Assembly: GCF_054482595.1 (NCBI RefSeq) | Contig: NZ_CM137008.1 | Reading direction: 5' to 3' (one strand) | Length of the DNA stretch: 64,000 nt | Shown: piece after piece, positions 4,048 to 48,758 of the stretch | How positions within the stretch are numbered: position 1 is the stretch's first letter | Layout of the letters: the number at the start of each line of letters is the position of its first letter | The notes under the pieces: generated by a model | What the model was told of the DNA's origin: nothing | The model's database searches: none | What the model saw: only the letters and a program-made list of their open reading frames with translations | Translations under genes and position numbers: made by a program

Positions 4048-4617
4048 ATGAGCCGATTCATCCCCATAGAATTACACCATGCCAGCCGTCTGTTAAATCA
4101 TGGCCCAACTGTCTTGATCACCAGTTTCGATGAGCAATCCCAGCGGCGTAACATTATGGCTGCAGCCTGGTCAATGCCGGTGGAGTTTGAACCTCCACGC
4201 GTGGCGATTGTGGTAGATAAATCGACATGGACCAGGGAGTTGATTGAACATAACGGTAAATTTGGCATCGTTATCCCGGGCGTTGCAGCAACTAACTGGA
4301 CGTGGGCAGTGGGAAGTGTATCTGGGCGTGAAGAAGATAAATTTAATTGCTACGGCATTCCGGTGGTGAAAGGTCCGGTGCTTGGTTTGCCACTTGTTGA
4401 AGAGAAATGCCTGGCGTGGATGGAGTGCCGCCTGCTACCTGCGACTTCTGCGCAACAAAAATACGACACGCTGTTTGGCGAGGTGGTATCAGCAGCGGCA
4501 GACGCACGGGTATTTGTCGAAGGCCGCTGGCAGTTTGATGATGATAAGCTCAATACGTTGCATCATTTAGGTGCTGGCACGTTTGTTACCAGCGGCAAGC
4601 GAGTTACGGCGGGTTAA
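4048..4617 (+). CDS. yddH: Flavin reductase-like protein
   Basis: ORF 4000..4617; start placed at the internal Met (MSRFIPIELHH) to give about 189 aa. Confidence 0.75.
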   Translation: MSRFIPIELHHASRLLNHGPTVLITSFDEQSQRRNIMAAAWSMPVEFEPPRVAIVVDKSTWTRELIEHNGKFGIVIPGVAATNWTWAVGSVSGREEDKFNCYGIPVVKGPVLGLPLVEEKCLAWMECRLLPATSAQQKYDTLFGEVVSAAADARVFVEGRWQFDDDKLNTLHHLGAGTFVTSGKRVTAG

Positions 4618-4620
4618 GCA

Positions 4621-4848
4621 TTACATGCTGTAACCGGGTTTCTTTATCAAAGCCTCCATTTGGGGCGCGATTTCGGCATCCCAGATAGCTTGCCATGATT
4701 CTGGTTGAATCTGCTGTAGAGAAATGCTTATCGAGCTATCTTTACTGTTCAGATGGCGAATAATAACGTCGGTAATATCTGCAGCAAGTGCTGCTTTTTG
4801 TTGTTCGTCCAGTTCACGCGGAAAACATTTAATGTCGATGTGCGGCAT
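4621..4848 (-). CDS. pptA: 4-oxalocrotonate tautomerase-family protein
   Basis: Start placed at MPHIDIK within ORF 4621..4962; N-terminal Pro1 after Met is typical of the tautomerase superfamily. Confidence 0.75.
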
Positions 4849-5283
4849 GATTACGCTCCTTTTGAAAGATGTCAGTAAAATTAACACACATTGTGAATGT
4901 CGTATGTCCGGTGATGCGTTTTTACGACAATAATGCCTGCTTGAAATTGTAGATATTTGCACTACACCCTTTTAAATAAAGCACCAACAAATCGTCAACT
5001 TGCAGAACATATTCTTCTGCCTACATACCATTAAGAAAACATCAAGTTCCCGACTTGCCAATTTATTAACGCCCATTATAGACGCTGAAACAAGCTACGG
5101 ACAAAGGAGATGCCAAAATTACCGGCAATGCAGAAAAACTCAACGAACCATGGCTCTTTACCACAGCAGCCGGGGTTGTTTGGGACCGACTTCCGACAGC
5201 AGATCCCGGTGGGCCTGCCACCATCTCTTCACAAGTTTATGCTTATTACATGCAAAACGTCCCGTTTTGCATCTTTGTGCCTA

Positions 5284-5400
5284 CGGCACACCGTGATCTT
5301 TCCCTGGTCCCTGTCCCGGATTGTAGTACCGGTGCCAGTTGTAGTGCAGTTCGGATTCGTCGTCATACTGCTAGCCCGGATGGCGGAGCAGTTGCTCTAG
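5284..5400 (-). pseudogene. Decayed fragment of an Rhs core end (orphan rhs remnant), interrupted by stops
   Basis: Minus-strand translation gives ...QYDDESELHYNWHRYYNPGQG..., resembling the Rhs core terminus [12 protein letters not shown]; stop codons on both sides; no intact downstream ORF. Confidence 0.5.
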
Positions 5401-5442
5401 TCACTCAGAATATTGTAATAGTGATAGAGTGCAGTGCCGGTT

Positions 5443-5856
5443 TCAATATCCTAACGCTGGTCTTTTGCCTGTATTAACTGATTTAGCTGGTTTGCTACAT
5501 ATTAATGCCTTCAGATTTTCCCTTTCCTTGTCTGTGATACTGTCACAAACCCTACTAGCCCATTCTACTTCACTCTTCTCCAGGCATTCTATTTTCTTAT
5601 TGCTCATTGTTCTAATGTTTGGTGTTGCATCTCCATTTAATAACATCCATGTTTCATTTTTCTTCATAAAACATCTTCCATTATGTTCAAAGATATTAGG
5701 TGTGAATATATTATCAGAATCCCATGTTACGACTTGCTCGAGGGCTATATTATCTTGATAGTCCATGCCAGCATTATAATAATCACAAGATATAATTATC
5801 ATGGAAATAATTATCATGGAAATAATTATCACTAATATCTTCCCAAGCATTTCCAT
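5443..5856 (-). CDS. Putative Rhs immunity protein, predicted lipoprotein
   Basis: 137-aa ORF whose ATG directly abuts the rhs stop codon; AT-rich; N-terminal hydrophobic segment ending in a lipobox-like IISC with Asp at +2. Confidence 0.55.
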   Translation of the reverse strand: MEMLGKILVIIISMIIISMIIISCDYYNAGMDYQDNIALEQVVTWDSDNIFTPNIFEHNGRCFMKKNETWMLLNGDATPNIRTMSNKKIECLEKSEVEWASRVCDSITDKERENLKALICSKPAKSVNTGKRPALGY

Positions 5857-8800
5857 TTACTTTACCTCTTGAAATTCAAATGGGAATCCAGTGAAAGGAC
5901 CTTTAGGCATAATATATCTTTGATATCCATAAAGCTCACCGAGCACTTGTAGGCTTATAGGCGCATTTGTATTCATAGAGGGGTTGTTAAACCCGCACGC
6001 CTCAAAAATCATGTTCGTTCGGCTAAAACAATTATTTAAAACAGGAAGAGGCCCGAGGTTAATAGTTTTTAGTTTTTTATTAAGGTCTATTGCCTTATTC
6101 ATCATACATTGTTCTTCTTCATCTGTTGTATCTATTATCCAAATCCAGGTATCTCTGCGGGATTGTATCTTTTTAAAATAATCAGAGACAGAGGCTCCCA
6201 TCTCATCCCCAGTTCCCGAACTCATTAATCCATATCGATTTGCCGCCGCAGCATGCCCAAAAGGATTATCAGGAACGGGGCCGTTACCTATTATCATAGT
6301 ACTAAGCCCTAATGGATCAACGTGTTGCACTGGATTCAGCGGATATTGGTACAGATTCCATCCCCCCTTCAGCCCTATCGGGTCCTGAGTGATATACCGC
6401 CCCTGCAACGGATCGTAGTACCGGTTCCGGTTGTAGTACAGCCCCGACTCCTTATCATACTGCTGCCCCGGCAGCCGGTACGGCTGGTGCAGGTGATGCG
6501 GGTTCTCCTCATTAAGCTGGTTGCCCCATTCATCATACTCCGCGCTCCACGCCGTATTGCCGTCTTCACTGATAAGCGCCAGCGGCAGGCCCCGGTGGTC
6601 GCAGTGGTAAAGATGAACTTTTCTCGCCGGTGTGTATTCCGGCTCCATCTGTCTGGCCAGTTGCTCCACCGTCAGCCCGCACTGCGCAAGCCACGCCCGG
6701 CTTTCACTGCTCACGCGGTCTGCCCGGATTTCTTCCTCCAGTCTGTCCAGCAGCCGCACCAGTTCAGCCGGAAATACCACGCCGTGCCCGTCCTCGCTCC
6801 CTTCCTGCTGCATCTTCTCCGCCAGGCTGCGGCGCTGCGCTTTCTCCCGCTCGCCGTTCTCTGTCTCGCCCCGGATGAGCGGCGTGAAGCTTCCCGGCTC
6901 GTATACCGTCTGGATACGTGTGGTGTCAGTCTGCACCGTCGTCAGCCTGTCGCCGTCCCACCCGTACCATGTCTCCTCCGGTTTACGCGACAGCGACATC
7001 CATCCCGTCAGGTCACGCCCGCGACGCCACACCCGTTTCGCCATTCGCCGTCCCAGCGGGTCGTAGAGGTAGCAGCTCTCGACCAGTGGCTCGCCATGCT
7101 GTATCCGCGTGTAGAACACCAGGCGGTGCTGGCTGTCGTAGTGATAGTGGTGGGTGCGCTCGTCGTGCATCCGGATAACCCCTTCCGGGATACGGTCCGT
7201 CTTCTCCGCCAGCCTGCCGTATTCATCGTAGCGGTAGACATAGTGCGCATCTTCCGCGATGCGGTTATCCGGCCACGCCGTGAAGGTGCTGTCCGGGTGC
7301 AGTTCCGGGTCCGGCAGCCGGTTTCCTGCCGGGTCCGTCGCATACGGGATATCGATATCCAGGTTCGCTGCCGTGGTGTGGACGCCCGTCAGCCTTCCCG
7401 TGCCGCTGTAACGGTACTCCCGGCTCTCCTGCGGGCCGCTGATGCGGATTAGCTGTCCGTTGTCGTTCCAGTCGTAGTCATGGTCAAGCTGCGGAAGGTT
7501 CAGGTGCCTGCTCCGGAGCTGGCCGCTGGTATTCCAGGCGGTGGCAAGTTCATATGCCTCCCCGCCGAAGCTGCGGGCCGTCTCACGGTGCAGCCGGTCC
7601 CGCGTGTACTCGACCAGCGGCGTTCCGCCCAGCTTCATCCCCGCAAGATAACCGCTGCCATACGTCAGCCACTCCACCCGCGGCAGGCTGTCCGGCGTGA
7701 CGCGGTTTGCCAGACCCTGTTCGTTGTATGCGTGCTCTGTCTCATGCTGCCACAGCAGTTCCCCCGTCTCCGGGTTATGCACCGTCTGGCGTTCGCCGGC
7801 CAGGCGACCCTTATCATCATAACCGTAATGCACCGCCACCTGATGGCCTTCGCTCAGGTGGCTGATGTCTGTCAGCCAGCCGTGGCCGTCATACTGCCAC
7901 TGCTCTGCCGGTTCACCGTTCACCGTGCGGTGAGTGATACGGTCCGATTCGTCGTAGTGCCAGAGGGTGACAAGTCCCTCATCCTCACTCTGTGTGAGTT
8001 TTCCGGTCAGGTCATAATGATAACGCTGCGTCCGCCCGTCAAAGCCGCCCTGCTGTACCAGGCGGTCCAGCGCATCGTAGCTGAAGTCGCTGTGACTGCC
8101 GTTCTCGTTGGTCAGGCTGATGACACGTCCGGCAGCATCGTACTCCATACTGCGCGTCAGCCCGCCCTGCGTGGTGCTGACCGCCTTTCCCCACGCATCG
8201 TACTGTGTCTCGCTCCGGTTGCCGTCCGGGGTGATAACGGCAGTCAGGTCGCCTGCGGCGTTGTATTCATACCGCGTTTCACGGCCCTGTGCGTCTTTCA
8301 CCGAGGTTAACCGGCCACGGTTGTCATAGCGGCGGTAAAGGCTGATGCCTTCCTCGCGGTGGACCGCCGTCATCTGGCCGAAGCGGTCGTATTCATAGCG
8401 GGTCTGGTAGCCCGAGCAGTCGGTGAACGCCAGCAACTGACCGTAGCGGCTCCACGTCATCTGCCGGGTGCTGCCCGTCGCATCTGTTGTCGTGGCCGGT
8501 AATTCACTGTGCGCATCATCATAGCGGTAGCGTACTGTCTCCCCGCTGCGCGATGTCTCCGTTACCAGCCTGTCCAGTTCATCATATGCCCGGCGGCTCT
8601 CCAGCCCGTCCGGGGACACCACCGCCGTCAGCTGGTTCCCGTCGTTATAGTAAAATTTCGTCTCCCGCCCGTCCGGTGTGGTGATGTCCGTGATATCGCC
8701 GGACACCACATTCAGACCGTACTCTGTCCGCCGTCCCGCCGCGTCCGTCTGCGCCGTGAGCCTTCCTGCCGCGTCATACCCGCTGTGCGTGACGCTGCCA

Positions 8801-10062
8801 TCCGCCAGTTCTTTTTTCACCACCCGTTTCAGCCCGCCTTCACCTTCTGTATGCAGCACCTCACGCCGGTTCAGGCTGTCGGTGACGGTGATGCGGTCCT
8901 GCTCATACTGGTAGCGGTAACTCAGGCCTGCCGGGTTAAGCTGCTCCACCACCCGCCCGGTATCGTCGTAGCGGTAGCGCATCTCCGGCCTTCCCGCATA
9001 ACGGTGCCCCACCATCCGGCCCGGGTGCTGCGCGTCATACGTGAAAGCGCGCACCTGTGTCCCGCTGCGGTCATATACCGCCAGCAGTTCACCGGCTTCC
9101 GTATACGTGTACCGCGCCAGTGGCGCTCCGGGCAGGCTCTCCGGGTATGCCGGGTCGTGCATCAGCCACACCGCCAAAAGGCGGATACCCCTGTCGGGGC
9201 CGTATTCGGTACCGGGCAGTGTGTCGGGGAACGCTGAGGCTGAGAGAGGGCGGGAACGGTCAGAAGAAGATAGCGAAGAGGTGCGGGCCTCTTCCGCACG
9301 CTGCGCCTGCGTGGTCAGCACCAGACGGAACTCCCGCCCGGCACCGTCCGTCACGCCGGTGATTTCCCCGGCCAGGTCACCGGCGGCCTCACGCCGGTAC
9401 GTCAGCGTCCGCCCGAAGCGGTCCGCCATCCCGGTAAGCACCCGGTACGGCGGCAGCGGCGCTGGCAGTACGTCCTCAGCACCCGGCACCCGCTCAGACC
9501 ACCCCAGTATCCACCACGGCCCCTGTGCGCTGTTGGTCGCCAGGTAAAGATGCGGGCTTAACCGGATATCCGGCGGCAGCGACGCCCACAGCCGTGCCAG
9601 CGTATGGCCGTCCGGCTGCGTTGCCTTACCGCCACGCACCAGCCACAGGGACTCGCTGCGGCTGTACACCGCCTCACCCGGCAGCAGCGGCTCAAAGTGA
9701 ATGCTCCGTCCGCCGTTGTCGTTGAGTACCAGTGCATCATCGCGTAGCTGTAAGCGGATATCAGAAGGCGCTTTCCAGCCGGGGCCAAAAATCCCCACCG
9801 GTGCAGGCGTCTTCGTCCGGTAGCTGCTGTAGGTGCGGGAGAGAATGAACGGCAGCGGGCCGGGCAGCGCAAGGTCCGTCTCGCCGGGCAGCACCTTCGC
9901 CCCCAGTAGCGGGTTTACCGGGTTAGAATAGGTGATACCGCCCGGACACACCGAGCACGCCACACCGGTCGGCGCGCCTATCAGTACCCCCGCTGACCCC
10001 TGGACTATCGGACCGCCGTACTGGGTCATATCTCCCTGGCGTGCCGCTGGTTTTCCGCTCAT
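5857..10062 (-). CDS. rhs: Rhs-family polymorphic toxin with N-terminal PAAR-like domain, YD-repeat core and variable C-terminal toxin tip
   Basis: 1401-aa ORF; N-terminus [11 protein letters not shown]...; many YD repeats; core terminus PxxxxDPLGL near 6305 followed by a roughly 148-aa AT-rich tip. Confidence 0.9.
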
Positions 10063-47721: not shown

Positions 47722-48061
47722 TACCGTTGTCTCTCGTCCAGGTTTACTCCTGATAGAAAGTCATCGGCATTTGACGGTAATTACTTACGACTAAAAGCCT
47801 CTTTGCGTCACATTTTTACAACAATTATTGCAGAGAAGATTAATGCCATTGGAATGAAGAGAGTAACGAATGGTTAAACTGGCTAACCCGAATGACGAAA
47901 AATTCTGGAAAACAGCACGCAATTTCGTCAGGTGATTATTTTCGTCCCTAAGGAAACCACATAGGATGCTCACGGGTGCCTGAGACTTTCTGTTTTCAGG
48001 CTAACCGGGAATCAGAAAGACGAAGGCCCCGACCGATATTTCTATCAACCGAGGCCAACGA

Positions 48062-48269
<208 letters not shown>

Positions 48270-48675: not shown

Positions 48676-48739
48676 TAATAGGCGCTTCCGATGTAGACCC
48701 GTATTCTTCGCCTGTACCACGGGTCGGTTTTAGTACAGG
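48676..48739 (+). ncRNA. rydC: RydC small regulatory RNA
   Basis: tataat -10 at 48664..48669; transcript begins cttccgatgtagaccc...; terminator stem cgcctgtac/gtacaggcg followed by ttttcttt; convergent with cybB. Confidence 0.55.
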
Positions 48740-48758
48740 CGTTTTCTTTAAATATCCT

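Follow-up and report, generated by a model that had tools for sequence, protein, structure and literature searches.

What occupies the DNA between a complete rhs gene and pptA on this Escherichia coli chromosome, and by which events it came to be there, is the question raised by the window, i.e. the whole stretch of 64,000 nucleotides (assembly GCF_054482595.1, contig NZ_CM137008.1) that was analyzed. A preliminary description, made from the letters only, had read the interval 4963..5442 as a single decayed orphan end of an rhs gene, the scar of a displaced toxin/immunity cassette. The gene order in the window is narZ(Y)WV-yddE-nhoA-yddH-pptA, followed by an Rhs locus on the minus strand, and the interval under study is 100% identical to that of strain XH990 (NZ_CP019359.1). 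The record of that strain annotates pptA, a 137-aa hypothetical protein, an 'RHS element core protein' and VgrG, and its RefSeq annotation places nothing within the 592 bp separating pptA from the small open reading frame (ORF). The neighbors framing the interval are the following.

4621..4848, minus strand: pptA (tautomerase), from the XH990 annotation (L001 5771..5998)
5443..5856, minus strand: small ORF of 137 aa directly after rhs (ORF list; WP_021556798.1, hypothetical protein)
5857..10062, minus strand: rhs, full-length core protein of 1401 aa, downstream of vgrG (ORF and XH990 annotation, 100% identical)

From its position, the product of 5443..5856 is a putative cognate immunity protein of rhs; the minus-strand end of its ORF reads ...PALGY*. 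Inside this ORF a 15-bp unit, ATAATTATCATGGAA, is repeated ~2.7 times at 5792..5832 and encodes ...IIISMIIISMIIIS..., which belongs to the N-terminal hydrophobic part of the 137-aa protein. The repeat number looks polymorphic, because related strains carry a 132-aa version (WP_000425544.1, 399 nt) as against the 137 aa of the window. In the main Rhs protein, the C-terminal tip (5857..~6320) comprises roughly 150 aa after DPLGL and has a partner ORF. In K-12, ydcD and the H-repeat gene ydcC, together with yncI, lie between rhsE and pptA, in agreement with the preliminary description; the window has none of the three. At the same locus K-12 MG1655 has an rhsE pseudogene only, while NZ_CM135829.1 (L002, 4.83 Mb), labelled 'DH5alpha', has an intact RhsE-type core protein with VgrG; this strain label may be wrong. 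Elsewhere in the window, gathering-level Rfam matches were obtained for the sok antitoxin RNA (47974..48125, plus strand, 109.7 bits) and the RydC sRNA (48685..48748, plus strand, 92.5 bits).

When 5426 complete E. coli genomes were searched with the interval as query, the matches fell on separate blocks of the query and not on the whole, with a coverage of at least 80% in only 18 of them. The whole arrangement is present in these proportions (18/5426), and the junction of Rhs, H-rpt and intron sequence in 42 of the 5426 genomes. Local alignments set the limits of the blocks as follows.

4601..5081: pptA and upstream intergenic DNA
5080..5148: tail of a sulfatase gene
5147..5306: end of an H-rpt element and intron piece; 1–4 sites per genome in thousands of genomes, never annotated
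5307 onward: Rhs remnant

Judged from its sequence, the interval is dead DNA consisting of four stacked remnants of known elements, of which 94 nt of an Rhs core, 15 nt of H-rpt, ~145 nt of a group II intron and a 69-nt sulfatase tail survive. The layers are identified and bounded, an undeleted precursor occupies the same locus in another strain, and a microhomology lies at the joint that separates the two states. It is very probable that the interval represents a multi-layer scar of successive mobile-DNA events at an RhsE-type locus, and one that no longer functions, the latter being a judgement from its truncation and mosaic structure.

The layer next to the immunity-position gene is of Rhs origin.

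5401..5442, minus strand: spacer of 42 nt, immunity stop codon to orphan core fragment (strain alignments)
5307..5400, minus strand: orphan Rhs core-end remnant, 94 nt, LEQLLRHPG*QYDDESELHYNWHRYYNPGQG (translation and core-end matches)

The minus-strand translation of 5460..4850 includes LEQLLRHPG*QYDDESELHYNWHRYYNPGQGPGKDHGVP*, with an in-frame TAG in the remnant at 5373..5371. The remnant peptide agrees at 20/31 residues (E=2e-10) with the core end of the Rhs protein that the window encodes in full, nucleotide BLAST aligned 5309..5379 with 6401..6471 at 77.5% over 71 nt, and the best ungapped alignment of the remnant, to 6399..6492, gives 67/94 identities with a longest exact run of 11. The preliminary description had assigned an Rhs core terminus to 5284..5400 and had named a lack of nucleotide similarity to Rhs core ends as the finding that would overturn this; the similarity having been found, the claim stands for 5307..5400, whereas 5284..5306 proved to be the H-rpt terminus and the start of the intron. 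Strain EC21Z-078 holds a longer form of the module. Over an orphan Rhs pseudogene and its neighbors, 5307..6100 is 96.6% identical to this strain, and the counterpart of the remnant is the start of the pseudogene L003 4519..5094 ('RHS repeat-associated core domain-containing protein'), which has the internal stop of the remnant as well, runs on into a ~150-aa C-terminal (presumed toxin) region, and is followed by a frameshifted small ORF. The spacer 5401..5442 likewise occurs in strains with a longer orphan module, being part of the 96.6% match to EC21Z-078 and of the 98% match to EC1515 and 2013C-4282.

In the window, Rhs homology ends sharply at 5306/5307, after the GQG codons (...NPGQG), where the left end of H-rpt takes over; the remnant is truncated before both the DPxGL motif and the toxin domain and contains neither. 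The ORF list has no minus-strand ORF of at least 60 aa within 4963..5442, which bears out what had been reported earlier. An immunity ORF for the orphan tip is likewise missing from 4849..5306, which holds no minus-strand ORF of at least 60 aa and no annotation in XH990, and no part of 4963..5306 matched an Rhs tip or immunity gene. Plus-strand ORFs of 75–98 aa in the mechanical ORF list run across the interval and span several of its unrelated junctions. The notion of a displaced-cassette scar survives insofar as an orphan core-end fragment does lie downstream of the rhs-immunity pair; it fails as a picture of decay filling 4963..5442, as only 94 nt are left, and these are cut cleanly by H-rpt. 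RecA requires homology of ~25 nt or more, and the remnant, with 71% identity and no exact run above 11 nt against the resident core, falls below this requirement and therefore cannot act as a recombination substrate for tip switching.

The second layer is the extreme end of an insertion sequence.

5292..5306, minus strand: left terminal 15 nt of H-rpt (ISEc1/ISAs1-family), CAGGGAAAGATCACG, the 5' exon of the intron (exact match)

The final bases of block 5147..5306, TGATCTTTCCCTG, are the left terminus of H-rpt. In all loci examined, K-12 ydcC included, the 12-mer GATCTTTCCCTG lies 133–144 nt upstream of the start of the ISAs1 transposase, and CAGGGCAAGATTAC, at the opposite end of the element, is its inverted repeat. 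The whole 160-nt block 5147..5306 was considered as H-rpt and rejected, since only its last 15 nt match the left end and the remainder is intron. An ISAs1-type transposase gene, present in EC1515 and 2013C-4282, is missing from the interval in the window, and so is the right end of H-rpt, save for CA inside the deletion joint described below. The earlier statement that both ydcD and the H-repeat are absent is correct for the genes, but the terminal 15 nt of the H-repeat remain.

The remainder of the block is the third layer, a fragment of the group II intron E.c.I9.

5147..5291, minus strand: 5' fragment of E.c.I9, nt 1 to 141–145, class D (RmInt1-like), part of domain I only (Rfam and alignments)

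It begins with GUGUGCC (GTGTGCC at 5291), which conforms to the consensus 5' end GUGYG, right after nt 15 of H-rpt, as in full-length copies. The Rfam model RF01999, for domain I of group II introns, matched on the minus strand with 49.2 bits against a gathering score of 36, in an alignment that is good only to model position ~77 of this truncated fragment; in genomes with a longer block the same model scores 82–93 bits. Other Rfam families produced only sub-threshold noise in 4600..6000 at a permissive threshold (Ysr206, 17 bits; RAGATH-28, 13 bits). The 160-nt block is identical at 159/160 positions to the sequence of the intact intron of 2013C-4282, and 5306..5147 is 98.8% identical to REL606 242494..242654, where intron nt 1 falls on the published start of E.c.I9-tr2 at 242510 (fragment 242510-242668). 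Leclercq and Cordaux (2012, PLoS One, PMC3522654) catalogued E.c.I9 as a class D intron that targets the 'Rhs IS', with a full copy in ATCC 8739, 193-bp fragments (E.c.I9-1/tr1) in O157:H7, IAI1, SE11 and E24377A, and a 159-bp fragment (E.c.I9-tr2) in BL21/REL606. The Sakai coordinates in the supplement of that paper refer to an earlier version of the record, and no exact match was made to them.

Full-length copies give the measure of what has been lost. The intron of R32_14_1F has 1886 nt, a domain V/VI (RF00029, 62.8 bits) and an ltrA gene, and in full-length copies it is precisely nt 15 and nt 16 of the H-rpt left end that the intron separates. In 2013C-4282 ltrA is intact, and the intron-encoded protein is 57% identical to the ORF product of a multi-copy intron on pSymA of S. 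meliloti, which itself gives Rfam matches to domain I and domain V/VI and with which the window fragment aligns from the first base. We take this pSymA intron to be RmInt1, from its copy number and its host and not from annotation. Neither domain V/VI nor ltrA was found in the window by the Rfam scan and the ORF list; the window copy is a dead fragment, devoid of domains II–VI and of the intron-encoded protein.

Intact composites of H-rpt and intron are also found at other loci, and 5' heads of E.c.I9 of 145–193 nt occur in 2563 of 5426 genomes, mostly at 95–100% identity. In many genomes an E.c.I9 head of ~100, 159 or 193 nt, always accompanied by the 15-nt H-rpt exon, runs straight into a second, complete H-rpt, which starts at its nt 1 and is oriented the same way (examples are L002 4959..5165, L007 3987..4161, L008, and L009 3957..4112). 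On this evidence, H-rpt copies seem to have inserted repeatedly into the intron carried by another H-rpt, whereupon recombination between the IS bodies removed the 3' part of the intron. A match on the E. coli plasmid pC27A-2 (83.7%), considered as a possible full-length intron, was uninformative, with no ORFs above 100 aa and no Rfam match. Group II introns in E. coli Rhs/H-rpt DNA were reportedly first described in 1994, by Knoop and Brennicke and by Ferat et al.

A perfect hairpin at 5251..5271 had been pointed out before. It is indeed there, with a full stem one base pair longer, and it belongs to the intron.

5250..5272, minus strand: hairpin with a 10-bp stem and a 3-nt loop, intron nt 20–42 (sequence and fold)

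Its 9-bp core at 5251..5271 is TGCAAAACG-TCC-CGTTTTGCA. The stem is present in both the minimum-free-energy and the centroid folds of the full 5' region of the intron, the intron region folds with z = -3.95, and RmInt1 has a hairpin of other sequence, AGTTCA-ACA-TGAACT, at the aligned position. The hairpin is a domain I stem-loop of E.c.I9 and not an Rhs feature. As such, perfect 9-bp hairpins are not rare in the window, with ~9 distinct ones as compared with ~1.8 in shuffles. A role as Rho-independent terminator was considered and dropped; the terminator scan did not call it, and the minus-strand tail, ATGTAATAAG, has no U-run.

Beyond the intron piece, towards pptA, lies DNA that also occurs in genomes without an Rhs element at this place.

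4849..5081, no strand assigned: ancestral pptA-sulfatase intergenic DNA, also in genomes without an Rhs element here
5080..5148, plus strand: 3'-terminal remnant of an alkyl/aryl-sulfatase gene, in frame TLKQATDKGDAKITGNAEKLNE (match to strain 2016C-3878)

Strain 2016C-3878 has no Rhs element at the locus, but an alkyl/aryl-sulfatase gene and a GGDEF gene instead. Window 4603..5081 is 92.9% identical to its DNA at L006 4749..5227, and the sulfatase tail is 89.6% identical to L006 7154..7220, within the coding sequence 5299..7275. Strain DCE7 (L005) matches window 4601..5148 at 97.3% and keeps a slightly longer sulfatase tail. The position 5146/5147 was therefore rejected as a fixed island boundary common to both strains: the tail in DCE7 simply extends further. 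An older deletion joint is apparent at 5080/5081, where ~1.9 kb (L006 5228..7153) have gone, comprising ~70 nt at the end of the intergenic region and the greater part of the sulfatase gene; DCE7 shares this deletion. In DCE7, a gene for a SymE-family type I toxin (L005 5518..5718) is placed between the sulfatase tail and degraded Rhs fragments, and in L012 (3080..3313) a SymE gene likewise comes after an Rhs immunity gene.

How the intron piece came to adjoin the sulfatase tail is seen from strain EC1515, which has at the same locus rhs, the immunity gene, the Rhs remnant, IRL15, the full intron, the H-rpt body (ydcC), IRR, the sulfatase tail and pptA, with 98% identity to the window on both sides. 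Its ltrA is a pseudogene. The composite element measures 3155 bp in EC1515 and 3179 bp in 2013C-4282, the latter being the sum of a 1293-bp H-rpt and an 1886-nt intron. The window has the EC1515 arrangement minus ~3.0 kb.

5147..5150, no strand assigned: deletion joint with the 4-nt microhomology ACCA (EC1515 L014 895-935 and 3890-3930 compared with window 5130-5170)

ACCA is present in both parental sequences, ...CAACGAAC/CAGGGC... at the IRR terminus and ...CACTACCATGGC... in the intron, and in a single copy in the window; it spans the right terminus of H-rpt (GAAC/CAGGGC...) and nt 142–145 of the intron. The joint is a microhomology deletion with an endpoint within 2 nt of the IS terminus. 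Transposase cleavage at the H-rpt end may have started the deletion, and the location of the joint at the exact H-rpt terminus could point to a transposase-driven event instead of plain microhomology slippage. No target duplication flanks the composite, and the Rhs core and the sulfatase tail that border it have no relation to each other; H-rpt therefore marks a joint made by deletion or recombination, as opposed to a simple insertion.

A history in four steps would account for this arrangement. To begin with, the present tip and its immunity gene would have recombined into the rhs core, displacing the older tip and its immunity gene downstream as an orphan module with a short fragment of core end at its start; displacement as the source of orphan tips that carry core fragments is the model of Jackson et al. 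(2009, PMC2935791). Next, an H-rpt (ISEc1-family) would have come to lie with its left end against this fragment right after the GQG codons, with loss of the orphan DPxGL motif, toxin domain and immunity gene, as the comparison with EC21Z-078 indicates, and with the right end of H-rpt coming to adjoin the tail of a sulfatase gene that had been truncated before. This may have happened by an adjacent deletion that the IS mediated, or else two H-rpt copies may have recombined. In a third step, E.c.I9 would have inserted by retrohoming at the site that it is known to target, nt 15/16 of the left end of H-rpt; the joining of H-rpt probably came before the homing of the intron. Finally, in the lineage of the window, a deletion of ~3.0 kb would have removed the intron from nt ~146 to its end together with the entire H-rpt body.

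Three other readings have to be weighed against this history. If the whole interval were a single orphan cassette of rhs toxin and immunity gene that point mutations had eroded where it stands, with a hairpin that has nothing to do with it, the real homology to the Rhs core end would be explained, and the in-frame stop, which the longer orphan of EC21Z-078 also has, would fit. Instead of fading, however, the similarity to the longer orphan breaks off at 5306/5307, the 160 nt that follow are 98–99% identical to the H-rpt end and E.c.I9, sulfatase-gene sequence follows the intron piece, and 4963..5306 is without any Rhs tip or immunity match. The sharp junctions refute a decayed cassette as a complete account, and we regard it as highly improbable. 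The opposite polarity of events, in which the window arrangement would be the older one and the EC1515-type locus derived from it by insertion, exists as a formal possibility only. An intron head of 145 nt and an IS end of 15 nt cannot precede a complete intron in a complete IS; moreover, the block that is missing has at its borders a 4-nt microhomology such as deletions typically show, and the same composite of H-rpt and intron is intact at other loci, so that the chance of this order of events is practically negligible.

A functional interpretation has in its favor that 5' pieces of E.c.I9 persist in about half of the E. coli genomes (2563/5426), that the piece folds stably (z = -3.95), and that the rhs-immunity operon, encoded on the same strand, ends just upstream of it. 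The intron piece with its hairpin might have been co-opted as a cis-acting RNA element that, for instance, stabilizes or terminates the rhs-immunity transcript at its 3' end or acts as a small RNA. Against this, the hairpin lacks a U-tract on the minus strand and was not called by the terminator scan, the cuts differ among loci (~100, 145, 159 and 193 nt) in a manner that fits accidents rather than a selected unit, high identity is expected from recent common descent, and Leclercq and Cordaux treat such pieces as inactivated copies (PMC3522654). Co-option at this locus has a very slim chance of being right, and an equally slim one attaches to the broader proposal that E.c.I9 heads, i.e. the H-rpt end with the domain I hairpin, are retained as an RNA element that stabilizes or ends the rhs-immunity transcript or serves as a decoy for the intron and H-rpt machinery. 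Were the RNA-element reading true, the copy in the window would have to be regarded as an exaptation with a function instead of a scar.

With the scar of successive mobile-DNA events as the preferred reading, the use of the analysis lies in correction and as an aid to annotation: what appeared to be a single decayed rhs cassette resolves into four superimposed known remnants. The locus records the usual sequence of events at Rhs loci, namely tip displacement, IS capture, homing of an intron into the IS, and deletion, and it opens no new biological question. Every component has been described already, and each layer fails features of a working member of its class. The third truncation state of E.c.I9, found in 18/5426 complete genomes, could serve as a lineage marker.

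A comparison with the known systems makes this clear layer by layer. Like the orphan Rhs-CT/immunity modules (PMC2935791; Poole et al. 2011, PMC3150448), the Rhs remnant lies directly downstream of a full-length rhs and an immunity-position gene on the same strand, and it starts with a short conserved copy of the core end (...PGQQYDxESxLxYNxxRYYxPxxG); it differs in that only 94 nt are left, with an in-frame stop and without the DPxGL motif, toxin domain and immunity gene. With H-rpt, one of the Rhs-associated ISAs1-family elements ISEc1-ISEc5 (ydcC in K-12), the window shares the exact 15-nt left terminus, at the very position where related strains keep the whole element beside pptA, but what it retains is a terminal scar without transposase gene or right end. 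The intron piece resembles RmInt1 of Sinorhizobium meliloti, a class D intron that homes into ISRm2011-2, in its ~77% identity over D1, in the GUGUGC start, in a hairpin at the same place and in having an insertion sequence as target, whereas the intron species, the host and the target IS are different, and here a dead 5' fragment only is present. With the catalogued fragments of E.c.I9 the piece has in common 98–99% identity, the 5' exon formed by H-rpt nt 1–15, the location in an Rhs region and a truncation that retains the 5' end. It differs from them by being cut at nt 141–145 and by adjoining sulfatase-gene DNA and not a second H-rpt, and this third truncation point, joined to chromosomal DNA, is the one new detail that the locus contributes.
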